Shown: positions 1-55,070 of the stretch, piece by piece
How the letters are laid out: every line of letters begins with the position of its first letter
How positions within the stretch are numbered: position 1 is the stretch's first letter
Virus record (IMG/VR): IMGVR_UViG_3300025120_010521
Direction: 5' to 3' (one strand)
DNA: 64,000 nucleotides
Origin: a virus
Lineage: Duplodnaviria; Caudoviricetes
Translations under genes and position numbers: made by a program
The notes under the pieces: model-generated
What the model was told of the DNA's origin: nothing
Databases searched by the model: none
What the model saw: the letters and a program-made list of their open reading frames with translations, nothing else

Positions 1-790
1 TTAGATTGTTTTTAAATGGGTGTGTTGTGACAGCAATATTTTTAAAATCATGTTGTAATAAATTTTGCAATGTCATTATCATTGCCCAATCTGTTTGTTT
101 TTTCATTAACATATCTTTGTTCCATACAGCAAAGCATACGTTGTTAGTTGAATCGTAGTTATAAATTGTTTTTGTTTTTTCGTATTCTAAATTAATTGTT
201 AATCGTATAAGCAATGAATTTCTTTCAACTCCTAATGTTGGCTTATGCCAAGAATTATTATTAGATATCATTATGTATCCATTATTTGGAATAAAGTTTG
301 TTTTGTATACTTGCTTATTATTTTTAGTAAAAGATGTTCCATATTCAGATAGAGAATTATCTGTTGGTAGATAAAGTTGAAGTGTTATTGTTGACAAACT
401 ATCTTTTTGATCTGAGTGTGCATTATCTACTTGATGTGGATATTCTGTATGAAATGTAATATTAATTTTTGTATTTTTTAATACTTTATGATCATAGTTA
501 AATTTATCTAATAAAGATTTTTTAAAACTATCATTATTAACATGTTGCCAAAGCTCTTCATAAAACAAATCTTGTTTTCTAATGTTTTCAAAAGTAACTA
601 TAGATGGATCTTGTCCTTCTTTAGGATATTCACTACTAGCAAATTTTGTTTTAAATGTTTCAATATCGTTTGATATTTTATTATAATGATCTAACGTAAA
701 AAGATTATTAAGATCATAAGCATCAACATGATCGTGTAATAGATCAAGTTGTTGTGCATCTTTTATTTTTTTATCAATATAGTCAAACAT
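1..790 (-). CDS. 2OG-Fe(II) oxygenase-like protein, 3' end truncated by the window edge (absent from ORF track)
   Basis: Manual translation from ATG at 790 (MFDYIDKKIK...) stays open to position 1. It contains an HxD motif (NAHSDQ), TLQLYLP, and a distal His (NNSWH..RNSL). Confidence 0.7.
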   Translation of the reverse strand, partial: MFDYIDKKIKDAQQLDLLHDHVDAYDLNNLFTLDHYNKISNDIETFKTKFASSEYPKEGQDPSIVTFENIRKQDLFYEELWQHVNNDSFKKSLLDKFNYDHKVLKNTKINITFHTEYPHQVDNAHSDQKDSLSTITLQLYLPTDNSLSEYGTSFTKNNKQVYKTNFIPNNGYIMISNNNSWHKPTLGVERNSLLIRLTINLEYEKTKTIYNYDSTNNVCFAVWNKDMLMKKQTDWAMIMTLQNLLQHDFKNIAVTTHPFKNNL

Positions 791-799
791 TATTTCTTT

Positions 800-874
800 T
801 GGCATTCCCTAGGAGAGTCGAACTCCTCTTTCCTGGATGAAAACCAGGTGTCCTAACCGATAGACGAAGGGAAC
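800..874 (-). tRNA. trnE: tRNA-Glu(TTC)
   Basis: Cloverleaf: acceptor GTTCCCT/AGGGAAT, anticodon arm CCTGG-TTTTCAT-CCAGG, T-loop TTCGA, encoded CCA. Confidence 0.95.
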
Positions 875-12118: not shown

Positions 12119-12427
12119 TTAGAAAATGCCAAGAGCTAATTTTGCCTCTTCACTCATCATTTCCTGTGAAAACGGAGGGTCAAATGTTGTTTCAATAAAA
12201 CATGAATCAACACCCTCAACAGTTTCGGCCGCATTTTTGATGTCTGCTACAATTTGGTCTGCCGCTGGACAAAAAGCCGATGTTAGTGTATGTGTAACTG
12301 CTACTTTAGGTAGTTCTGATATATCAATGTTATAAATTAGTCCAAGATCATATATATTAATAGATATTTCAGGATCATAACACTGTCTAAGATTTTCTAT
12401 AATTTTTTCTTTTATTGCTTCTGTCAT
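12119..12427 (-). CDS. sufT: DUF59 / SufT-like Fe-S assembly protein
   Basis: CYDPEISINIYDLGLIY, TLTSAFCP, FDPPFSQEMMSEEAKLALG. Confidence 0.88.
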   Translation of the reverse strand: MTEAIKEKIIENLRQCYDPEISINIYDLGLIYNIDISELPKVAVTHTLTSAFCPAADQIVADIKNAAETVEGVDSCFIETTFDPPFSQEMMSEEAKLALGIF

Positions 12428-12996
12428 ACTGCTTCAACTGTATGTACTTCGGGTATATAATGTTTTAACATATTTTCAATGCCCATCTTAAGTGTTGCTG
12501 TCGAACTTGGACATCCTGAACAAGCACCATACATTTCTAAATACACAGTTCCTTTATCAAAACTATGAAAAATAATATCGCCACCATCCATTGCTACTGC
12601 TGGTCTAACACGTTCATCAAGTAATTGTGTAATTCTTTTTGTAATTTTATCTGTACCTGCATCATTGTTGATTGTTTCACAAGCAGGTTTTGTTTCTTCA
12701 ATAATAAATGGTTTATCATGGTAGTTCTGAATTTCAGAAATTACTAATGATTTAAGATCTTCCCATTCAACTGTATCAAGTTTTCCTATAGTAATAAAAT
12801 CAGATCCAAAAAATACATCTTGAACTCCTTCAATTTTAAAAAGATTATATGCTAATGGTGATTCTTCTACCGGATTATCTTTAGGATCTTTTTTATAAAA
12901 TAACGGAGACTTAATCCCTCTTATTTCTCTACCTGGTAGAAATTTAAGTGCGTTTGGATTAGGTGTTGGCTCTGTTTGTATCATCATTGTCATCAT
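12424..12996 (-). CDS. nfuA: NfuA/NifU-type Fe-S carrier
   Basis: TEPTPNPNALKF Nfu_N domain and VRPAVAMDGGDI...GACSGCPSS (CxxC). Confidence 0.93.
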   Translation of the reverse strand: MMTMMIQTEPTPNPNALKFLPGREIRGIKSPLFYKKDPKDNPVEESPLAYNLFKIEGVQDVFFGSDFITIGKLDTVEWEDLKSLVISEIQNYHDKPFIIEETKPACETINNDAGTDKITKRITQLLDERVRPAVAMDGGDIIFHSFDKGTVYLEMYGACSGCPSSTATLKMGIENMLKHYIPEVHTVEAV

Positions 12997-13035: not shown

Positions 13036-14001
13036 CTACTTTAATTGAGATTCAAATTCTCTTAGACGTTTATATACACTAGCCAATTCAATAATTGTTG
13101 GCCATGCTTTTAAAAGATATTGCATTGAGCCTTCAACTCTTCCAAATGCTCTTATAATTTGTTGCATAACTCCAAGTGTTACTACACCTGCTACAATGGC
13201 TGGTGCTAAAAATACATAAGCAGACAATACGTTTGCTTGTAAGTATGCCATACGTCCTACATTAAAGTATAGATATCGTATATAACTTAAAAAATGAATA
13301 CTACGAACATCTGCAAATAGTTCATCGATTCTTTTTGGTCTTACATTACCATCATCTTCTGCGATAACTAATATTTTTCTATAGGCCGCTTCTTTCTTTT
13401 GTAAGTCATATTCTACGCCTACTAGTCTAAGTATCCATCCTAGTCCTATTAAGAATGCAGTACCACCAAGTGTCCAAACTAATGCACCAGTAATTAAACC
13501 GTATTGCCAATCACCAAAAAAGAAAATTGGTATACCAACTGATAAACCTAATAAGATAGGAACAAATTGAATTAGAACCATTACTGATTCAATAAAACTT
13601 GTGCCTAAGCCTTCCATAATTCTTGTAAACTTAATTGTGTCTTCTTGTACCCTTTGTGACGCACCTTCTATATTTCTTGCTTTATCATAAACACTATGAT
13701 ACCACTCTACCATTGCTGTACGCCATCTAAATAAAAAGTGTGCTGTAAAAAAACTAATTGCAACGTACAACGCAATATAAATTCCTGCTAGTGTAATAAA
13801 TGATAATAGACTTGCAAAATATTCTTCTATTGTAACTGCATTAGGAGTAGCAAGTGCTTTTTGTATCATGTCATAAAATACACCAAACCATTCATTTATT
13901 TTTACATCTATTTTAACTTGTACCCAAAGTGAAGAAAGAATGATTGCTGAGCCAAGCCATGCCCACAATAACCACTTTCTGATTGTAAAGAATTTAAACA
14001 T
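13036..14001 (-). CDS. sbmA: SbmA/BacA-family peptide uptake transporter
   Basis: VKINEWFGVFYDMIQKAL, FRWRTAM, IEGASQRVQEDT, QKKEAAYRK, RAFGRVEGSMQYL. Confidence 0.88.
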   Translation of the reverse strand: MFKFFTIRKWLLWAWLGSAIILSSLWVQVKIDVKINEWFGVFYDMIQKALATPNAVTIEEYFASLLSFITLAGIYIALYVAISFFTAHFLFRWRTAMVEWYHSVYDKARNIEGASQRVQEDTIKFTRIMEGLGTSFIESVMVLIQFVPILLGLSVGIPIFFFGDWQYGLITGALVWTLGGTAFLIGLGWILRLVGVEYDLQKKEAAYRKILVIAEDDGNVRPKRIDELFADVRSIHFLSYIRYLYFNVGRMAYLQANVLSAYVFLAPAIVAGVVTLGVMQQIIRAFGRVEGSMQYLLKAWPTIIELASVYKRLREFESQLK

Positions 14002-15581: not shown

Positions 15582-16145
15582 TTAGTTACCTTTCTGCTCT
15601 ACAACTCGCTCAACTAATCTTTCTGCTTGTAATGTTCTGTAACGTTCAAGATCTTGATCTAATCTAAAGTATTGAACTTTAAGAATTGTACTTGTAATTA
15701 AACCAGTCAGTGTTGTATATAGTGCAGTGGACATGCCAACTGCCATACTTGCCAATGCAGTTTGTACTGATGAAACGTTTGCAATGTTAATTCCTGTGAA
15801 AGCGCCTGCCAACATAAGAATAAAACCTGCTACTGTTCCTATCAAACCAAGTGTTAATAATACATCTGATGCAAACCAACCTGGTTCGTGTCTTGTATCT
15901 AAATTTTCTAATTTGTGTAACTCGCCATTTGCAAGTTGACTTAACTTCCAACTTTCGTAACCACAATGTAATGTCATTGAATAAAAAATGAAAAGAATAA
16001 AGAAAGATAATTTAGTTTTGTCATTATTCCATAAGTCTTCGTGTACACCAAAACCAGCCAATACAACTGTTAGTGCTATTATAAGTGTAAAAAACCACCA
16101 CCATTTAAGGAAGATACTATGTTTTTTTAGTTTTGTAAGTGCCAT
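15582..16145 (-). CDS. MotA/TolQ/ExbB proton-channel family protein
   Basis: LGLIGTVAG and ALYTTLTGL signatures; four hydrophobic helices. Confidence 0.8.
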   Translation of the reverse strand: MALTKLKKHSIFLKWWWFFTLIIALTVVLAGFGVHEDLWNNDKTKLSFFILFIFYSMTLHCGYESWKLSQLANGELHKLENLDTRHEPGWFASDVLLTLGLIGTVAGFILMLAGAFTGINIANVSSVQTALASMAVGMSTALYTTLTGLITSTILKVQYFRLDQDLERYRTLQAERLVERVVEQKGN

Positions 16146-16187
16146 GAAATTGTTTCCTTAATATATAGTTATTTATCGTATTCAAAC

Positions 16188-16217
16188 GAAACCCCGGCTA
16201 TGTTTTGCCAGGGCTCC
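16188..16217 (-). terminator. GC-rich hairpin after hsp20 (putative intrinsic terminator)
   Basis: GAGCCCTGGC-AAAACATA-GCCGGGGTTTC followed by GTTTG; the U-tract is short. Confidence 0.6.
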
Positions 16218-16241
16218 GCATAAAGTATTATGTTTTTAAAG

Positions 16242-16682
16242 TTACTTAATATCAATAGTTTTTGGCTTTTTGCTTTCTGGAATAATTCTTTCCAGTGACA
16301 CACGAAGCAAACCATCTTTAAGTTCAGCACCTTTTACTTCTACATCATCTGCAATCGTAAATGCTTTTGTAAATTGTCTTTTAGAGATTCCTTTATGGAT
16401 AACTCCGTCAGTAGACTCTTTATCTTCATCAGATTTTACAGATTTAATAGTAAGTGTATTTTCAGCATACTCTACATTGATGTCTTTTTTGCCAAATCCA
16501 GCAAGTGCGACTTCTATATCGTAGGTATTATCACCTGTCCTTACAATATTGTAAGGTGGGTAATTTGTCATAGGTGCTGTGAAAACGTCTCCATCAAACA
16601 TTGATTCAAAATGATTGAAAACTTCATCAAACCCAATAGTTACAGGACGTAACTGATTAAAAATAGATAGATTTCTTGTCAT
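16242..16682 (-). CDS. small heat shock protein (Hsp20/IbpA family)
   Basis: NYPPYNIV, EVALAGF, IHKGISKRQF, AELKDGLL, KPKTIDIK; GGAGG SD. Confidence 0.95.
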   Translation of the reverse strand: MTRNLSIFNQLRPVTIGFDEVFNHFESMFDGDVFTAPMTNYPPYNIVRTGDNTYDIEVALAGFGKKDINVEYAENTLTIKSVKSDEDKESTDGVIHKGISKRQFTKAFTIADDVEVKGAELKDGLLRVSLERIIPESKKPKTIDIK

Positions 16683-16808
16683 AATAACTCCTCCTTTTAA
16701 GCAAGTTGTTTTAATGTAGATCCTATCAAAGCAATCTACATTTATATTTATACAGTTTACTGTATATATATTATATAAGCATGAATTTTAAAAAGTCAAG
16801 AGTCTAAT

Positions 16809-17051
16809 TTATTTTTTTTCTATTTTTTCTGAAAAAAGTTCAATTTTTTGGCCAGGTCCAACTTTACTAGGTAAATCACCATATGTTTCTGCATATTTTT
16901 TTATTACTTCTATATAGAATACAGTAGAATTATGGTGACATTTTTTATTAATTTCTGATAATCCATTATTTGTGCTATCAATGTGAGTTGCTAAAGCCCT
17001 TGCGGCCTCTTTTTGTAGTGTACGTAAATCTAATGTTTCTAAATCTATCAT
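16809..17051 (-). CDS. hypothetical protein
   Basis: 80-aa ORF in operon orientation. Confidence 0.65.
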   Translation of the reverse strand: MIDLETLDLRTLQKEAARALATHIDSTNNGLSEINKKCHHNSTVFYIEVIKKYAETYGDLPSKVGPGQKIELFSEKIEKK

Positions 17052-17052
17052 A

Positions 17053-17328
17053 TTATTTCTTTAACTTATTTAATACACGATCATTTGCTGATATTCTTGT
17101 TTTTATCATATATCCTTTTGCACCATTATATGGATTTTGCATATAAGATTCATTTACCCAATAATATTTAAAAAAAATCATATCTCCGTCATCAAGTTTT
17201 ACTGGATACCAGGCAAAACATTTTCTCCATCTTGAATTCCATTGTGGTAAATTCATTTTTTGCTTACCCCAATTTCCTAGATAGTTGACATCTATAATTT
17301 GTATGTTTCTTGATAACCACTGCAACAT
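17053..17328 (-). CDS. hypothetical protein (Trp-rich)
   Basis: 91-aa ORF with WRKCFAWYPV. Confidence 0.6.
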   Translation of the reverse strand: MLQWLSRNIQIIDVNYLGNWGKQKMNLPQWNSRWRKCFAWYPVKLDDGDMIFFKYYWVNESYMQNPYNGAKGYMIKTRISANDRVLNKLKK

Positions 17329-17353
17329 TTTTTTTCATACCTTTTAATCTTTG

Positions 17354-17430
17354 TGGCGGGAGTGAAGGGACTCGAACCCTCGGCCTTCCGCGTGACAGGC
17401 GGACGCTCTAACCAACTGAGCTACACCCCC
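17354..17430 (-). tRNA. trnD: tRNA-Asp(GTC)
   Basis: Cloverleaf: GGGGGTG/CACTCCC acceptor, TCCGC-CTGTCAC-GCGGA anticodon arm, TTCGA, CCA. Its 5' 10 nt overlap the end of sufD. Confidence 0.96.
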
Positions 17431-17996
17431 ATTAGAGGTTCTCCCATTCTATTCTTGATATCTTGATAAAATGCTTCAATCAAAATCTCAATGGCTTTTG
17501 ATTCAGGTATACCTCTACTTCTAAGATAAAATACCTGCTCTTGATCCAGTGGACCTGTTGTTGCACCATGTGAACATATTGTATCATCATTTTTGATATC
17601 TAGTTCTGGTTTTGAAAATGCAAAAGAATCATCATCTAATAATAAATTTTTATTCAACATATGACTTTCACATCCTGTTACACCTTTTGGAATGGTAATC
17701 TTTCCTTCAAAAGAACTTTCACAGTCCTTATTTACGAATCTAAAATCTTGATCACATTTAGACTTCTTGCCTTTGTGTGTTACTTTTGTAACGACCTTCG
17801 GATCTCTTCCTTCATTATGGAACAAGCCATACATTTCACAAGAAGCGTTCTCTTCTAAATCTATATTAATCTTTACATCAACACCAGCACGATCATGGAA
17901 AAATAATCTAGCGAATGAGTTTGGTTTCAAAGTGTAATTTAAAACTGCGTCCTTTTCTAAGTTTATAGTTTCTGTGTGAGTATTTTTTATTTCCAT
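17421..17996 (-). CDS. sufD: SufD-like Fe-S assembly protein (short, C-terminal part only)
   Basis: SKPELDIKNDDTICSHGATTGPLDQEQVFYLRSRGI; 191 aa. Confidence 0.85.
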   Translation of the reverse strand: MEIKNTHTETINLEKDAVLNYTLKPNSFARLFFHDRAGVDVKINIDLEENASCEMYGLFHNEGRDPKVVTKVTHKGKKSKCDQDFRFVNKDCESSFEGKITIPKGVTGCESHMLNKNLLLDDDSFAFSKPELDIKNDDTICSHGATTGPLDQEQVFYLRSRGIPESKAIEILIEAFYQDIKNRMGEPLMGV

Positions 17997-19444
17997 TATC
18001 CCACAGAACCTTCCATGCTAACTTCTAATAATTTGTTGGCTTCGACAGCAAACTCCATAGGAAGTTTTTGGAATACTTCTTTACAAAATCCTGATACTAG
18101 TAAGTTGGTTGCATCTTCTTCGTTTAAACCTCTTGCTCTCATGTAGAATAATTGATCTTCATCTATCTTAGATGTTGTGGCTTCGTGATTACAAGTACTC
18201 TTTCTTGTTTTACTATCAATGTAAGGAATAGTTATAGCAGAACATTCATTGCCCATCATTAAAGAATCACAGGCAGTAAAGTTTTTGGCTCCTGTGGCAC
18301 GTTTACCAATTTGAACTAATCCTCTGTAAGTGTTAGTGGATTTACCTGCTGAAATACCCTTTGAGATTATTGTGCTTTTGGTATTTTTTCCTATGTGTAT
18401 CATTTTAGTGCCTGTGTCTGCCATTTGATATCCATTTGTTAATGCAACTGAAAAGAATTCTCCAACAGAGTTATCTCCTTTTAGTATACATGAAGGATAC
18501 TTCCATGTCAATCTACTTCCTGTTTCAAACTGTGTCCAAGTTATACGAGAGTTTTCTCCTTTACACAAACCTCTTTTAGTTACAAAATTATAAATACCAC
18601 CTTTGCCTGTTTCAGGATCTCCTGGATACCAATTTTGTATTGTTGAATATTTTATTTCTGCATCTTTCATAGCAATTAATTCTACGTTGGCCGCATGTAA
18701 TTGATTTTCGTCACGCATTGGTGCTGTACAGCCTTCTAAATAACTTACATAACTACCTTCATCAGCAACAATCAGTGTTCTTTCGAACTGTCCTGTGTTT
18801 GAAGCATTTATTCTAAAGTATGTTGATAGTTCCATTGGACATCTTGTGTTCTTAGGAATGTAACAAAATGTACCATCTGAAAATACTGCTGAATTAAGTG
18901 TAGCAAAATAATTATCTGAACGTGGAATAACTGTGCCTAAATATTTTTTAACAAGGTCAGGATATTTTTCTACTGCTTCACCAAATGAACAAAATATAAT
19001 TCCTTTTTCTAATAATTCTTTATGATACGTTGTTGCTACAGATACAGAATCAAATACAGCATCTACTGCCACTCCTGCCAATGCCGCTTGTTCTGATGTA
19101 GGAATACCTAACTTTTCAAATGTAGCAAGTACTTCAGGATCAACTTCATCCATTGACTCTAGTTTTGGTTTTGGTTTAGAATAATAACTTAATCCCTGAT
19201 AATCTATAGGATCAATTTCAAGTGTTGACCAATCTGGTTCTTTCATTTCTGTCCAACGTTTATATGCTTTTAACCTATAGTCCAACAACCATTCCGGCTC
19301 TTTTTTCATTTTTGAAAGTCTTGTAACTATTTCTTCGTTGAGACCTGGTTCAAATGTTTCACTTTCCACATTGGTAACGAATCCAGCACTATATTCTTTA
19401 GATAAGTTATCTTCAATTTTTTTTCTATCTTTTACTTTTGGCAT
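17996..19444 (-). CDS. sufB: Fe-S cluster assembly protein SufB
   Basis: [51 protein letters not shown]. The true start is MPKVK at 19444; the track's 24-aa extension is read through tRNA-Val. Confidence 0.96.
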
Positions 19445-19455
19445 ACTACTATTTA

Positions 19456-19531
19456 TGGTGGGTAATACAGGACTCGAACCTATGACCCTCTCGGTGTAAA
19501 CGAGATGCTCTACCAACTGAGCTAATCACCC
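19456..19531 (-). tRNA. trnV: tRNA-Val(TAC)
   Basis: Cloverleaf: GGGTGAT/ATTACCC acceptor, TCTCG-TTTACAC-CGAGA anticodon arm, TTCGA, CCA. Its 5' 10 nt overlap the end of speD. Confidence 0.96.
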
Positions 19532-19902
19532 TTAATATTGATTTCTGTTAAGCCTCGTTCTCTATTCAAATACTTGTACTCAACTTTTACAGGATCAAAT
19601 TGTTTAATTTCTTCAAATATAACATCTGTTGGTAAACTACCACAAGTATATACGTCAAGTTGTAATAATCCTGGATCTGTTTCGTCCCAACAATGTAATG
19701 CTATATGAGATGTTTCAATAATCACTAAACCAGTTAAGCCTCTATTACCAGGCATGTTTAGATATGTTGTAATTGGTCCTTGACATATTTGCATACCAAT
19801 TTTTGCTACTAAATCTGTTAACCATGTATGAGCCCATTTTTGATTAGTAGGTGGTTTTTTTACTTCAGCTCTAACTATTAGATGTTTGTGTTCAACTGTC
19901 AT
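19522..19902 (-). CDS. speD: S-adenosylmethionine decarboxylase proenzyme (prokaryotic short type)
   Basis: [18 protein letters not shown]...LDVYTCG. Start set at the ATGA overlap with the upstream stop. Confidence 0.85.
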
Positions 19903-21263
19903 TTTAAAACTAATGGACAATATTCTTCGATTGCCATATTCCTATTTTTATCTAAAACTTTATTAAACTTAACAAAATCATCATAGTACTTTTTATGCTT
20001 GTTATCATTTAGGCAACTTGTTAACCAATGAATAACATTATTAAACTGTGTTTCTAATCTATATCTATCTTCTTCACTATGCATTGTGCTTTTTAATAAG
20101 TCTACATTTACTTTTTTTATTTTTTTTATACTTTCATCTAATATACTAACAGGTAATACATTAGAATGCAAGTGTTTAGGCCATTGTAATCTTGATGTGT
20201 GCCAATTACATTTTAACTCATTAACTATCCATGTTCCTGTTTCTGCCAAATATGGAGTATTTAATGCTTGAACTGTTGTTGTAGCTTTTATTTCTACTTT
20301 ACTTCCAAGTTCTTTTCTTACTATTGCTAGATTTTCTTTTAATAACCAACTATCAGCACCATGTCTTATATATTCATTTCTTTTTGGATCACCATCAATA
20401 CTAATTGTAAGTTTAATACTTTTAAATTTTTTCCAAAGTTCAATAATATCCATTTTTTTACTAAAGTTTAACTTGCTAAGATTAGTACTATATTTTAAAA
20501 TAATATTTTCAGTCTTTATGTTTTCTTGTTCGCCTAGTATCTTTAAAATTTTAAATACTAAAGGATCTAATAAAGGTTCACCGCCTGCAAATTCTACTTC
20601 ATCTAATGACGGGGCAAGTTCTTTAAATTCTTCAATAAAGTTTTTCTGTTGTTCAAATAAATTGATTAGCGGACTTTTATGCATGTTGAAACGTTTAATA
20701 TCATTTTCAACCGGGCCTCTATCTCCTTCCGGATAAAACTCTTTTACACTATCCCAATCTGCCATCCAAGGTGTAGAATCTTTTGGCCAACACATTCTAC
20801 ATTTAAAATTACATAAATTTGATGGCTTTAATTCTAATACTGGAATTGTAAAAGGAAATGTATCTGATTTATTATTTGAATAGTCTATCCAATCTTTTAC
20901 ATTTTTAGAGTATCTATCTATTCTTGTAATATTTTGTCCTTGACGTAAACTCATTATACCTTTATTTTCCATTGACCAACAATTTACACATTCAGGTAAA
21001 TTATTTTTGTTGCCACTAATCATATCTTGTCTAATTTTGTTCATACGGTCACTATACCATATATCTTTAAATGTAGTATCTGAAGCATCTGCTATTTTTT
21101 GAGACCTACAGCACAAACGTATTTGTCCGTTTGGTGTTGTACTTAAATGCATAAAAGGTTGTATACAGAACGTATCAGTATTTAAATCATTATCAAGTTT
21201 TTTAGATAATTGATTTATCTTATCAACTGAGTATTTTTGTTGTTCGTCATTAGAGTTAGCCAT
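19899..21263 (-). CDS. radical SAM protein with N-terminal SPASM/twitch-like domain
   Basis: CNFKCRMC and FAGGEP; N-terminal CIQPF...LCC...CVNC. Probable start MANS (track gives 21278). Confidence 0.88.
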   Translation of the reverse strand: MANSNDEQQKYSVDKINQLSKKLDNDLNTDTFCIQPFMHLSTTPNGQIRLCCRSQKIADASDTTFKDIWYSDRMNKIRQDMISGNKNNLPECVNCWSMENKGIMSLRQGQNITRIDRYSKNVKDWIDYSNNKSDTFPFTIPVLELKPSNLCNFKCRMCWPKDSTPWMADWDSVKEFYPEGDRGPVENDIKRFNMHKSPLINLFEQQKNFIEEFKELAPSLDEVEFAGGEPLLDPLVFKILKILGEQENIKTENIILKYSTNLSKLNFSKKMDIIELWKKFKSIKLTISIDGDPKRNEYIRHGADSWLLKENLAIVRKELGSKVEIKATTTVQALNTPYLAETGTWIVNELKCNWHTSRLQWPKHLHSNVLPVSILDESIKKIKKVNVDLLKSTMHSEEDRYRLETQFNNVIHWLTSCLNDNKHKKYYDDFVKFNKVLDKNRNMAIEEYCPLVLK

Positions 21264-21291
21264 ACATTTTACCTTCAAAAAGTAAGCCTAA

Positions 21292-22041
21292 CTACTTTTT
21301 TTTAAAAATTGGAATTGGGTCCATTTTATGTAGATTCAGCTTTCTTATGCTATGATATTTATCTAGTAAATCTATGTCTGGTCCAATTGCAATAGCACCT
21401 TTTTCGTCTAGTTCCATTGCTCTTTCCATTTGTTCATAAGATAAACCGCCTAGCTGATCTTTATCTGTTCTACCATCTTCCCATAACCCATCGGTTGGAG
21501 GTGCATCAATTATTTCTTGTAGGACACCTAAATCTTTTCCTAGTTGCCAAACTTCTGATTTCATTAGGTCTGCTAATGGAGATATATCAACTCCGCCATC
21601 ACCATATTTTGTATAAAAACCTACTCCAAAGTCTTCTACTTTATTACCTGTGCCTACAACAAGTCCTTTTTTAGCACCCGATATATGATGTAGTGTAAGC
21701 ATTCTAAGTCTTGCTTTTGTGTTTGCAAATGCATGTTCACTGCCGTAATCATTAAATGTATCTAACCAAAATCTTTCATAAGTCCTATTTAGATCAATTA
21801 CTTCATGTGTTACATTGTTAAATTTTTCTTCTAACCAAGATCCATGATCCATACTTAAATCATGTTGATCTTCAATTTGGTTTATTGGCATAGAGACTGC
21901 AATGGTTTTCATTCTAGTCATAGCACACAATGTACTGACTACTGACGAATCAATGCCTCCTGATATTCCTACTACTAATGTTTTACGATTATTTTCGTTG
22001 GCGTATCTTTTTATCCATTTAGAAATGTCGTCTTGTATCAT
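21292..22041 (-). CDS. nadE: NH3-dependent NAD+ synthetase
   Basis: GISGGIDSSV, ANTKARLRM, GTGNKVE, FYTKYGDGGVDISPLADL, APPTDGLW. Confidence 0.95.
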   Translation of the reverse strand: MIQDDISKWIKRYANENNRKTLVVGISGGIDSSVVSTLCAMTRMKTIAVSMPINQIEDQHDLSMDHGSWLEEKFNNVTHEVIDLNRTYERFWLDTFNDYGSEHAFANTKARLRMLTLHHISGAKKGLVVGTGNKVEDFGVGFYTKYGDGGVDISPLADLMKSEVWQLGKDLGVLQEIIDAPPTDGLWEDGRTDKDQLGGLSYEQMERAMELDEKGAIAIGPDIDLLDKYHSIRKLNLHKMDPIPIFKKK

Positions 22042-22047
22042 GGAGTA

Positions 22048-22404
22048 TTATCTCCTTTTGACTTTTTTCTTTGGAGTGCCGTATTCAGCCGCCTCGGCTT
22101 CTTTCCTTAATTTAAAAGCTCTTCTTATTGCACGTTTTTTATCTTCACGTTTTACAAAAGATGGCTTCATGTAGTATCTTCTATCACGAAGTTCTTGCAT
22201 GACTCCTTCTTTTAATAACATCTTTTTAAGTTTACGCATAGCTTTTTCAACGTTGTTGTCAACAACTGCAACAGCCATACCTGGTAACTTAGGTGGACGT
22301 GGTCTTCTCTCTTTGAAATCTCTTTTGTTAGAATTAGAATTATATTCTATATCAAAAGATTTTACATCAATTTTTTGTCTAGGTTTTCCTGTTTTCATAT
22401 TCAT
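22048..22404 (-). CDS. rpsU: ribosomal protein bS21 with long basic N-terminal extension
   Basis: VVDNNVEKAMRKLKK...RDRRYYMKPSFVKR bS21 core. Confidence 0.88.
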   Translation of the reverse strand: MNMKTGKPRQKIDVKSFDIEYNSNSNKRDFKERRPRPPKLPGMAVAVVDNNVEKAMRKLKKMLLKEGVMQELRDRRYYMKPSFVKREDKKRAIRRAFKLRKEAEAAEYGTPKKKVKRR

Positions 22405-22413
22405 AATACTCTT

Positions 22414-22441
22414 ATATTAACATCTTTACAATATTTGTCAA
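22414..22441 (-). promoter_or_regulatory. sigma70-type promoter TTGACA-N16-TAATAT
   Basis: Perfect -35 box upstream of rpsU-nadE; weaker -10 box. Confidence 0.5.
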
Positions 22442-22998
22442 CTCTTTTTTGTATCACTATCTTTATCTTTAGTAATAACAGCTATAATTCTGTTTCCAGC
22501 TTGTTTTGGTGGTGAATCATATTTAGTTTGCTCTAATTTTTTAACCATCATATTAATTTGATCAATGAACATTCTGCCGTTTGGTATTTCTCTACCTCGT
22601 AGCTTCATAACTATTTTTACCTTATCTCCATCGTTAATAAACTCTTGAGCTTTTTTAAGTTTAACATTAAGATCATGTACATCAATATTTGGCCTAAATT
22701 GTAATTCACGTAACTCTATTCTATTTTGTCTTTCAAGTTTTTTCTTTTGCTTGTCTTTTTTTTGTTTTTCATAGTTCCATTTTCCAAAATCCATAATACG
22801 ACATACAGGCGGATCAGCTTTTACTGTTGTGCATATAAGATCTAAATTACTTTCTTTTGCTTTTGAAAGTGCTGTTTTATTATCAACTATTCCAATAAAT
22901 GCTCCATCTGGGTCAATAAGTCTAACTTTTGGAAATGTAATTGCTGAATTTAACAATACACTTGGTTGTTGATTTCTGTAACGAAATGGTTTTTTCAC
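22438..22998 (-). CDS. infC: translation initiation factor IF-3
   Basis: VRLIDPDG, LDLI..ADPPVCRIMDFGK, ELQFRPNIDVHD, GDKVKIVMKLRGRE. Confidence 0.94.
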   Translation of the reverse strand: MKKPFRYRNQQPSVLLNSAITFPKVRLIDPDGAFIGIVDNKTALSKAKESNLDLICTTVKADPPVCRIMDFGKWNYEKQKKDKQKKKLERQNRIELRELQFRPNIDVHDLNVKLKKAQEFINDGDKVKIVMKLRGREIPNGRMFIDQINMMVKKLEQTKYDSPPKQAGNRIIAVITKDKDSDTKKS

Positions 22999-24254
22999 TA
23001 TGCTCCGTTTTTCTTATCTACTGTTTTGTAAATTAGCATTGGTGACTTACTTTCTGTTATTACTGTATCATTAATTACAATTTTTTCAACATCTTGTTGT
23101 TTTAGTAATGGCAATTCATATTGTAATTCTAATAGAATTTTTTCAAGAACAGAACGTAATCCTCTAGCACCAATTTTCTTTTCTAATGCTTCACTGGCTA
23201 CAACTTCTATAGCTTCTTTTGTAAATTCTAATTTTACTCCATCTAACTTAAACATTTTTTCAAATTGTTTTAACACTGCGTTTTTTGGCTTGGTTAAAAC
23301 GTGTATAAGGTCTGTATGCGTTAAACTATGACATGCTACTACAACTGGCAGTCGACCTACCATTTCTGGTATAAGACCAAATTTAACAACATCATCCGGT
23401 TGTACTTTTGATAATATTTGATCAAATTCTTCTTGTGACTCAAAGTTAGACATAAATCCCATTGATGTGTTTACATTTAATCTACGTTTAACAATTTCAT
23501 CCAAACCAACAAATGCTCCACCACATATAAACAAAATATTTGTAGTATCAACTTCAATTAAATCTTGTTGTGGATGTTTTCTTCCTCCTTGTGGCGGAAC
23601 TCTAACAGTTGTACCTTCAAGTAATTTTAATAATGCTTGTTGTACACCTTCACCTGATACATCTCTTGTAATTGATGTGTTTTCTGACTTACGTGACTTT
23701 TTGTCTATTTCGTCAATATATACAATACCTCGTTGGGCACGGTCAACATCAAAATCACAACTTTGTAACAGTCTTAGAATAATATTTTCAACATCATCAC
23801 CAACATAACCACTTTCAGTTAATGTTGTTGCATCTGCTTGGGCAAATGGTACATCTAAATAATCTGCAACTTTCTGAGCCAACAATGTTTTACCGCAACC
23901 ACTTGGCCCAGCTAATAATACATTTGACTTTTCTAATTCTACTCCGTCAACAACAGGATTATTTAATCTTTTATAATGATTATAAACTGCAACACTTAAA
24001 ACTTTTTTTGCTTGTTCTTGTCCAATTACATGTTCATCTAAATGTAATTTTAATTCATCAGGTATAATAACTTTTAAGGCTTTAGTTTCTTTGCCGTCTG
24101 CTTTTTGAATATCGTTTTCTTCTAATATTGAATAGCATAAGTCTACACATTCATTACATATATAAACTTTAGGTCCTGCAATTAGTTTTGTAACTTTAGA
24201 TCTTTCTTTACCACAGAACGAACAACTGTAGGAATCATCTTTTTTCTTAACCAT
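22998..24254 (-). CDS. clpX: ATP-dependent Clp protease ATP-binding subunit
   Basis: CSFCGK zinc domain, GPSGCGKT Walker [30 protein letters not shown]. Confidence 0.97.
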
Positions 24255-33391: not shown

Positions 33392-33436
33392 GCAAATATT
33401 TATAAGTTAAGTGTTGCTATTATATACTTTTATTTC

Positions 33437-54120: not shown

Positions 54121-54492
54121 ATGGATTATAACGAATTGTCAGATAAGTTTCCCTTTTTATCGTGTATAAAGCACGGTTTAAACGAATATGTTGGTATTAT
54201 ACAAAATCAAGACGATTTTGTAACTAGTATCTACATCTATGACGACATTCCTTCAGAACAACTTAAAGCAGATTTTTTAAGATTAGGTGATGTATGGTGG
54301 TGGGAATCAAACAGAGTAATTCCTATTAATATATTTTTAGCAGGTGAGTTTTCTTTATATCAAAATTGGCTTAAAACTTTTACTACTAAAGATATTAAAA
54401 TGATATTTGGTCCAACTACTAGCTTAAATAATATTGTAAGAAAAAGAATTAAAAGACGTCAAATACAATTAATCAAAAAAACTAACGGTTAA
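54121..54492 (+). CDS. conserved hypothetical phage protein
   Basis: FPFLSC...EYVGII...WWWESNR.IPINIFL; divergently transcribed single gene (track starts at TTG 54115). Confidence 0.75.
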   Translation: MDYNELSDKFPFLSCIKHGLNEYVGIIQNQDDFVTSIYIYDDIPSEQLKADFLRLGDVWWWESNRVIPINIFLAGEFSLYQNWLKTFTTKDIKMIFGPTTSLNNIVRKRIKRRQIQLIKKTNG

Positions 54493-55070
54493 ACAATAAG
54501 ATTAGATAGCAAATTTAATTGTACACAAATTGCCAATGCGTATCCAATTGCATGGCTTTTCTTAAAATAGTATGAATTATCTTTTGGTTTTTTCCAAACA
54601 TTTTCATTTATATCATCCCAGTTTTGTTTAAGTAAATGTCTTTTTGCTGGACGTATAATTGCTAGTACTGCCGCTAATTGCTCTACTGACTTTGGTTTTA
54701 ATGTACTAAGAATATCAAAATGATTATGTATATGAAATAGTTGTTCTACTATTTCTTTATGCTCTAATAAACTCCAGTCTGGTTCTTGATCTATTAGTTT
54801 TTGTAAATGATTCTCATCTTTTACTTTTTCATATACTCCTACATTTAATATATCTAATTTAAAATATCCTCTATCTTCAGCTTCTTTATAGTCAACGTTT
54901 GCTGTTTTAGTAAATGGATGTAATGGTATATCTGTAAAATAAACTCCAGTGTTATGTTTTTTAATTTCACCGTTGTTTATAATACTAGCAGGAATATGTT
55001 TCAGTTTTTCTAATAAAACATCTCTGTCTTTAACATCAATATCAATATCTGTTTTTACTATATTTGTCAT
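54489..55070 (-). CDS. miniature DNA polymerase III alpha (DnaE)-like protein
   Basis: DIDID, KHNTGVY, YFKLDILN, LAIIRPA, FKKSHAIGY. Confidence 0.7.
   Translation of the reverse strand: MTNIVKTDIDIDVKDRDVLLEKLKHIPASIINNGEIKKHNTGVYFTDIPLHPFTKTANVDYKEAEDRGYFKLDILNVGVYEKVKDENHLQKLIDQEPDWSLLEHKEIVEQLFHIHNHFDILSTLKPKSVEQLAAVLAIIRPAKRHLLKQNWDDINENVWKKPKDNSYYFKKSHAIGYALAICVQLNLLSNLIV

Follow-up and report, generated by a model that had tools for sequence, protein, structure and literature searches.

Stop codons of speD and a short sufD inside tRNA genes of a phage: a probable side effect of tight gene packing and a sufBD cassette in a tRNA row

Introduction

Why should a protein-coding gene end on a stop codon that belongs to the tRNA gene behind it? 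The 64,000-nt stretch of viral DNA analyzed here (the window) raises this question twice, once for speD, whose stop lies in tRNA-Val, and once for a short sufD-like gene, whose stop lies in tRNA-Asp. The original prediction, made from the sequence, offered two readings. Processing of both tRNAs would excise a sufBD mRNA with defined ends and without the sufD stop; alternatively, the tRNAs mark the recombination ends of a captured sufBD module. Here we weigh these readings against related loci, a survey of phage tRNAs and RNA-library contigs, and find that the stops are probably a side effect of tight packing and of a cassette set in a tRNA row, and not an RNA-processing device.

The window has a GC content of 32%, with almost all long ORFs on the minus strand, and its source looks like a T4-like giant marine phage, uncultured and very compact, whose genes all lie on one strand. 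The gene content is typical of large marine phages (ribonucleotide reductase, a DnaB-type helicase, a clamp-loader-like ATPase and several radical-SAM enzymes), and further accessory genes encode NAD synthase, IF3, bS21, ClpP, Hsp20 and an NfuA-like protein. One accessory-gene region (window 12427-12996, 13039-14001 and 22051-22998) holds an NfuA-like Fe-S carrier, an SbmA/BacA-like transporter, IF3 and an N-terminally extended bS21. Genes are densely arranged: 21 of 80 adjacent ORF pairs in the window overlap (26%), and in 46 of 80 the two ORFs are within 20 nt. Four tRNA genes, called by both ARAGORN and Rfam, lie among the ~81 ORFs of the 64-kb window. TAG is an ordinary stop codon here, ending 16 of the 81 ORFs, and with no suppressor tRNA in the window, its reassignment was ruled out.

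No close relative was found among cultured phages: megablast of 24 kb returned only one 40-nt match, and blastn returned fragments of tRNA, speD and sufB. Microcystis phage MaAM05 was considered as a comparator and set aside as not comparable, its host-like sufBCDS operon having no tRNA context.

Results

Gene order and tRNA overlaps

The order first described, speD > tRNA-Val > sufB > sufD > tRNA-Asp, is borne out, all on the minus strand, with the following features:

19902..19522, minus: speD, S-adenosylmethionine decarboxylase-like, 126 aa (Pfam PF02675, AdoMet_dc; phrog_3125)
19531..19456, minus: tRNA-Val(TAC) with encoded CCA (ARAGORN; Rfam RF00005, 68.9 bits)
19456..19450, minus: ATAAATA, late-promoter-like motif, its first A being the terminal A of the tRNA-Val CCA
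19455..17431, minus: sufBD cassette, 2025 nt, an indel exactly between the tRNA-Val CCA and G1 of tRNA-Asp
19444..17996, minus: sufB, 482 aa (NCBIfam NF008773; Pfam SUFBD_core)
17996..17421, minus: short sufD-like gene, 191 aa, C-terminal half of the SufBD core (SufD models, below cut-off)
17430..17354, minus: tRNA-Asp(GTC) with encoded CCA (ARAGORN; Rfam RF00005, 72.9 bits)

speD starts at the ATG at 19902 and ends AAT ATT AAG GGT GAT TAG. The last base of its AAG codon (19531) is G1 of tRNA-Val, and its TAG (19524..19522) occupies tRNA positions 8-10, a placement that the minus-strand reading and the ARAGORN and Rfam tRNA limits confirm. The second such stop claimed for this locus is equally present in the sequence: sufD ends CCT CTA ATG GGG GTG TAG, and this TAG (17423..17421) is positions 8-10 of tRNA-Asp. 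In tRNAs, the acceptor stem spans positions 1-7 and is followed by U8, a purine at position 9 and G10. Both tRNAs are full cloverleaves of this canonical class, with a 7-bp acceptor stem, U8, purine 9 and G10, and their 5' ends read GGGTGAT-TA-GCTC (tRNA-Val) and GGGGGTG-TA-GCTC (tRNA-Asp).

Against Pfam PF02675, speD scores 49.3 bits, above the gathering score of 25, and it lies under the NCBIfam equivalog cut-off (46.6 vs 75.7). sufB is a full-length match above curated cut-offs (849.1 bits vs 717 for NF008773; 633 vs 346 for TIGR01980), and its TAA (17998..17996) overlaps the sufD ATG as TAATG. sufD covers model positions 120-266 of 275 only and remains under the SufD model cut-off (TIGR01981/NF008194; 137 bits vs 222). 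No sufC was seen in the window. Plausibly, suf-type genes of the phage supply Fe-S clusters for its many radical-SAM enzymes.

The half-size sufD and its sub-cut-off scores raise the question of artefact, with tRNAs that are decayed relics, or ORF ends that are mis-read, and no true overlap of functional genes. We consider this hardly credible. The tRNAs score 69-73 bits against an Rfam RF00005 gathering score of 29 bits and have canonical stems and CCA; tRNA-Asp is 100% identical across the window and the loci L003 and L034, three diverged genomes; and neither speD nor sufD has an earlier in-frame stop. The short sufD is moreover kept as an intact ORF of 188-196 aa in five further loci; with L001 and L002 identical over the sufD stretch, these loci give four distinct sequences.

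Elsewhere in the window, the longest ORF downstream of tRNA-Glu (800-874), ORF 2..805, starts at an ATG in the final 6 nt of that tRNA; translation may instead begin at a second ATG ~15 nt farther on.

Origin of the speD overlap

Related loci were grouped by flank identity, which places the window with L034 and L003, L035 with L036, and L041 as the most distant. The speD end AAG GGT GAT TAG is common to the window, L003 and L034. In L035 and L036, speD reads ...ATT TAG, with its own stop three codons earlier and the G of that stop as tRNA position 1; in L041, 2 nt of its TAG stop belong to the first tRNA as well. The simplest history that these sequences suggest is that an ancestral speD ended on its own TAG touching G1 of the first tRNA, and that one T-to-A change (TAG to AAG) would then have added Lys-Gly-Asp, up to U8-A9-G10 (UAG) of tRNA-Val as the first in-frame stop. 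Because the overlap is also found in L034, where the sufBD cassette is absent, it is independent of sufBD.

In the window, speD borders a small tRNA row on the upstream side, and it adjoins tRNAs in more distant contigs too, its stop lying 0 to 18 nt upstream in L136 (1848-2210), L037 and L042; with L041, these are several otherwise dissimilar contigs that have speD at the upstream edge of a tRNA row, 0-18 nt away or overlapping.

Stop positions in phage tRNAs

Both genes end at the same tRNA positions, and the original prediction had proposed to compare such stops with chance. We surveyed 162 IMG/VR loci comprising 600 distinct tRNA contexts, using ORFs of at least 80 aa as the gene proxy, a small sample that gave 15 overlaps, 9 of them annotated. 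TAG occupies positions 8-10 in 314 of 575 phage tRNA sequences outside the window's own family (55%). For an ORF entering a tRNA in a random frame, position 8 holds the first in-frame stop in 19% of all frames, or 28% of those that stop within the tRNA, at least three times the share of any other tRNA position. Positions 8-10 are therefore no coincidence, because U8-A9-G10 is the commonest first in-frame stop for an ORF that enters a tRNA.

The overlaps themselves proved real, and their position is that of simple read-in: 4 of 15 independent ORF ends inside tRNAs lie at position 8, vs an expectation of 28%, and a fifth case (L175) was found outside that set. Genes ending on UAG 8-10 in other contigs are those of L145, L159, L082, L108 and L175. 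About 10% of the surveyed phage tRNAs with a close upstream CDS contain the stop of that CDS. In each of the two tRNAs concerned, tRNA-Val and tRNA-Asp, position 8 is the end of exactly one of the three frames, and the conditional chance of two position-8 junctions is about one in nine. The arrangement falls within chance and tight packing. A literature search found no published account of phage CDS stops inside tRNA genes.

A movable sufBD cassette

Aligned with L034, the window carries an insert of exactly 19455..17431, and both breakpoints, 19455 and 17431, lie at gene borders. Synteny, which the original prediction had named as a check, confirms that sufBD is present or absent between tRNA-Val and tRNA-Asp. 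Empty sites in the IMG/VR loci L034, L035 and L036 read speD > tRNA-Val > 2 nt (TT or CT) > tRNA-Asp; in the 328-kb contig L041, the order is speD > Ile > Val > Asp with a Val-Asp spacer of 1 nt and again no sufBD there, and its sufB lies ~200 kb away in a different context and without sufD.

At least three further contexts hold the cassette, and in two of these no tRNA flanks it. L003 reads speD > Val > Lys > sufB > sufD > Asp and has a sufB leader that differs from that of the window. In L001 and L002, the cassette (89% identical at the DNA level) is preceded by an unrelated gene and followed by tRNA-Arg(GCG). In L004 and L005, it sits between homologues of window ORF 54489..55070 and of the next gene, with no flanking tRNA, and the spacer downstream of it is homologous to the window's empty site near 54.5 kb. 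The window's homology with L004, L005 and L006 sets in exactly at 19455, with the letters TAAATA. sufBD thus shows the two marks of a phage mosaic accessory-gene cassette, presence or absence between conserved flanks and occurrence at several genome positions. As a candidate promoter of its own, the cassette may have ATAAATA before sufB, although the first A comes from the tRNA and other cassettes share only TAAATA; no terminator-like site was found.

Flank identities of the window are 86.5% and 91.3% to the sufBD-less L034 and 80.9% and 86.6% to L003. Because the flanks are nearer to L034, the cassette is patchily distributed and does not follow the backbone, a spread that fits exchange between co-infecting relatives. 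That sufBD was gained, and not precisely lost, is suggested by parsimony in an unrooted comparison and by the similar 2-nt spacers of the empty sites. Recombination between the two tRNAs as the cause of sufBD loss was ruled out, the empty sites keeping both tRNAs complete.

The right-hand junction bears on how sufD came to end in tRNA-Asp. In L004 and L005, sufD is 188 aa long and has its own TAA or TAG, with no tRNA alongside. The window codon at the position of that stop is AT plus G1 of tRNA-Asp, so the sufD stop appears to have been lost at or beside the junction. This junction is common to the window and L003, and in L001 and L002, sufD reads 23 nt into tRNA-Arg(GCG), up to a TAG in the D-loop. 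An out-of-frame TAATAA lies near the sufD 3' end in L001, and a frameshift there may be an alternative to stop loss at the junction itself; the sequences fit either. We propose that a 2.0-kb cassette of sufB and half-size sufD, mobile between sites in related phages, was set between tRNA-Val and tRNA-Asp, and that sufD, being without its own stop at or next to the right-hand junction, would hence end on UAG 8-10 of tRNA-Asp. The sufD overlap looks like a junction scar of a mobile sufBD cassette in the tRNA row.

The earlier suggestion that the tRNAs delimit a captured module is supported by synteny: empty Val-Asp sites, an interval running exactly from CCA to G1 and the other genome positions speak for it. 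The tRNAs are, however, no general ends of the module, since ARAGORN found no tRNA in the retrieved stretch of 29 of 32 sufB loci, and the intact tRNAs of the empty sites give no sign that the tRNAs themselves recombined.

Two more gene-sized indels distinguish the window from L034, a twitch-type radical-SAM/SPASM gene (19899-21278) before speD and a 91-aa ORF (17056-17328) after tRNA-Asp, so that three cassettes differ within 4.5 kb. L002, with sufBD by tRNA-Arg, and L034, whose Val-Asp site is empty, share a metagenome of origin and might be parts of one genome, in which case sufBD there would be relocated, not absent. Contigs that skip sufBD, from one DNA run and from RNA libraries, have sides of <31 nt at 90% likeness and possibly stem from other organisms; they were not counted.

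Genes that run into tRNAs

We then compared the kinds of gene that end inside tRNAs. Among nine independent CDSs doing so, seven have PHROG matches, five being homing or HNH endonucleases and two auxiliary metabolic genes (cpeT-like and carbamoyltransferase). The control set, 20 random CDSs with ends 2-40 nt ahead of a tRNA, contains a single HNH endonuclease. The endonuclease enrichment (5/9 vs 1/20; Fisher p = 0.005), obtained from a small sample in which genes were called as ORFs, accords with the idea that genes whose stop lies inside a tRNA were inserted directly upstream of it.

This enrichment might also mean that tRNA genes are themselves the targets, and that a nuclease or integrase recognizing tRNA sequence placed the cassette, by SegB-type homing or at attachment sites. 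T4 SegB, which lies in a tRNA cluster and recognizes a conserved tRNA motif (PMC2330249), and the variable cargo of other tRNA rows (L163 and L165 vs L169) lend this some weight. We nevertheless judge it very unlikely here. Searches of Pfam, NCBIfam and PHROGs gave no nuclease match for sufB, sufD or the flanking small ORFs, and no endonuclease or integrase domain; in L004 and L005, the same cassette sits between two protein genes without a tRNA; and filled as well as empty sites have both tRNAs intact and no duplicated piece of either.

Transcription and processing

On the coding strand, no terminator-like site was found in 16000..23000, which makes co-transcription of the locus likely. The region would be read as a long co-transcript, and sufBD may also start from the late-type ATAAATA. 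A ribosome ending speD or sufD would get to the UAG only by unwinding the 5' part of the tRNA, so ribosomes would terminate there while the tRNA part is still unprocessed; once the ribosome has departed, the tRNA would fold and RNase P would cut at G1. The upstream RNA left by this cut would have no stop and would go to decay or tmRNA rescue. Termination, RNase P cleavage and tmRNA rescue are established bacterial RNA biology. No bacterial mechanism is known to restore a lost stop codon. The CDS/tRNA overlap would be a tolerated cost, not a device.

An excised sufBD mRNA, as originally predicted, would be a logical consequence of RNase P cleavage if the locus is co-transcribed; as the purpose of the arrangement, it is not favored. 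A purposeful tRNA punctuation would hold that the tRNAs cut out a defined sufBD message and that the stops inside them couple or throttle output through tmRNA rescue. RNase P is established to cut tRNA 5' ends in mRNA-tRNA co-transcripts, all genes are co-oriented with no terminator-like site on their strand between 16000 and 23000, and only 11 nt separate the CCA from the sufB ATG. The sharing of the speD overlap by three genomes (window, L003 and L034) and of the sufD junction by two (window and L003) could likewise read as conservation, within one clade. Yet the overlaps toggle among close relatives, with speD ending on its own TAG in L035 and L036 and sufD on its own stop in L004 and L005; the retrieved stretches of 29 of 32 sufB loci have no tRNA that could punctuate; a stop at positions 8-10 is what neutral read-in predicts; and the window has only four tRNAs for ~80 genes. 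With the late-promoter-like ATAAATA directly before sufB, the 5' end of sufB could arise without tRNA processing. Taken together, we hold tRNA punctuation with a purpose to be unlikely, and probably the stops in tRNAs are a side effect of tight packing and of a cassette in the tRNA row.

A broader proposal, that UAG 8-10 is a universal backstop that lets stop-less cassettes settle upstream of tRNAs, with tRNA maturation setting enzyme output via non-stop RNA, tmRNA rescue and decay, appears to us quite unlikely.

Metatranscriptome searches returned three runs with short sufB and sufD contigs, which are uninformative on ends, strand and processing. Two RNA-library contigs match the window without differences (17186..17377 and 17952..18161), with DNA carry-over possible; an RNA-library contig that stops at 17437, 7 nt before tRNA-Asp, comes from a single study and was given no weight.

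The ATAAATA motif

As stated in the original prediction, ATAAATA starts on the terminal A of the tRNA-Val CCA (19456..19450); it ends 5 nt upstream of the sufB ATG. We take this motif to be akin to the T4-type late-promoter core. It is depleted two-fold in the window (24 found vs 52 expected); the coding strand carries 21 of the 24, most copies lie 5-35 nt ahead of an ORF start, and TATAAATA has the same strand bias. The motif is missing from L003, and L004, L005 and L006 have TAAATA only. In the window, late transcription of sufBD may begin independently at this motif, close to the ATG.

Two copies, 19450-19456 and 33397-33403 (minus), each closely follow a tRNA and precede an ATG by only 5 nt. 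Messages from these two copies would be nearly leaderless if ATAAATA is a T4-type late promoter.

Discussion

The nearest formal parallel is the tRNA punctuation of animal mitochondrial transcripts, reportedly described by Ojala, Montoya and Attardi in 1981. There, as here, tRNAs abut or overlap coding regions on a polycistronic strand, and cleavage would define mRNA ends and could remove part of a stop. Mitochondria differ, however, in having most genes flanked by tRNAs and in completing truncated stops through polyadenylation. In the window, four tRNAs among ~81 ORFs are far from flanking most or all mRNAs, a complete UAG lies inside the tRNA, and the overlaps vary among close relatives.

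A closer relative is the T4 tRNA cluster, where segB is a mobile gene (Brok-Volchanskaya et al. 2008, PMC2330249) and where the tRNA region is inherited as a block between co-infecting relatives (PMC2330249). Both systems have a T4-type tRNA row interrupted by a gene that is present or absent among relatives. The T4 insert is itself a homing endonuclease, whereas sufBD has no recognizable nuclease and also occurs away from tRNAs. Other phage CDS/tRNA junctions (cpeT-like, HNH, homing-endonuclease and carbamoyltransferase genes) resemble those of the window in ending on UAG 8-10 or on a later tRNA stop and in being mostly accessory or mobile; the window differs in the genes involved and in having two junctions 2 kb apart, one of which closes a mobile cassette. 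Auxiliary genes for Fe-S cluster assembly are known from marine viromes (PMC8940887), which likewise have phage-borne suf-type genes; the window adds sufB with a half-size sufD, no sufC alongside, as a movable two-gene unit.

The locus reveals no new mechanism, and its uses are practical. For annotation, a phage CDS that seems to have no stop before a tRNA most often ends on U8-A9-G10, and CDS/tRNA overlaps may flag recently inserted or mobile genes. In giant marine phages with many radical-SAM enzymes, sufB with a short sufD emerges as a unit that moves, and the tRNA rows of these phages as sites of cargo gain and loss. The wider interest lies in the fate of messages whose stop is cut off by tRNA processing.

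Two further sets of contigs show variable gene ends or cargo beside tRNAs. In two cyanophage-like contigs, cpeT-like genes precede tRNAs, one (L145:3981-4502) ending on TAG 8-10 and the other (L130:6324-6776) 15 nt upstream, a second natural example of stop toggling. In L163 and L165, 2.46 kb between tRNA-Gly and tRNA-Asp hold genes for an SNase-like nuclease and for a radical-SAM enzyme whose SPASM part seems to have been split off, and their relative L169 keeps the tRNAs contiguous.
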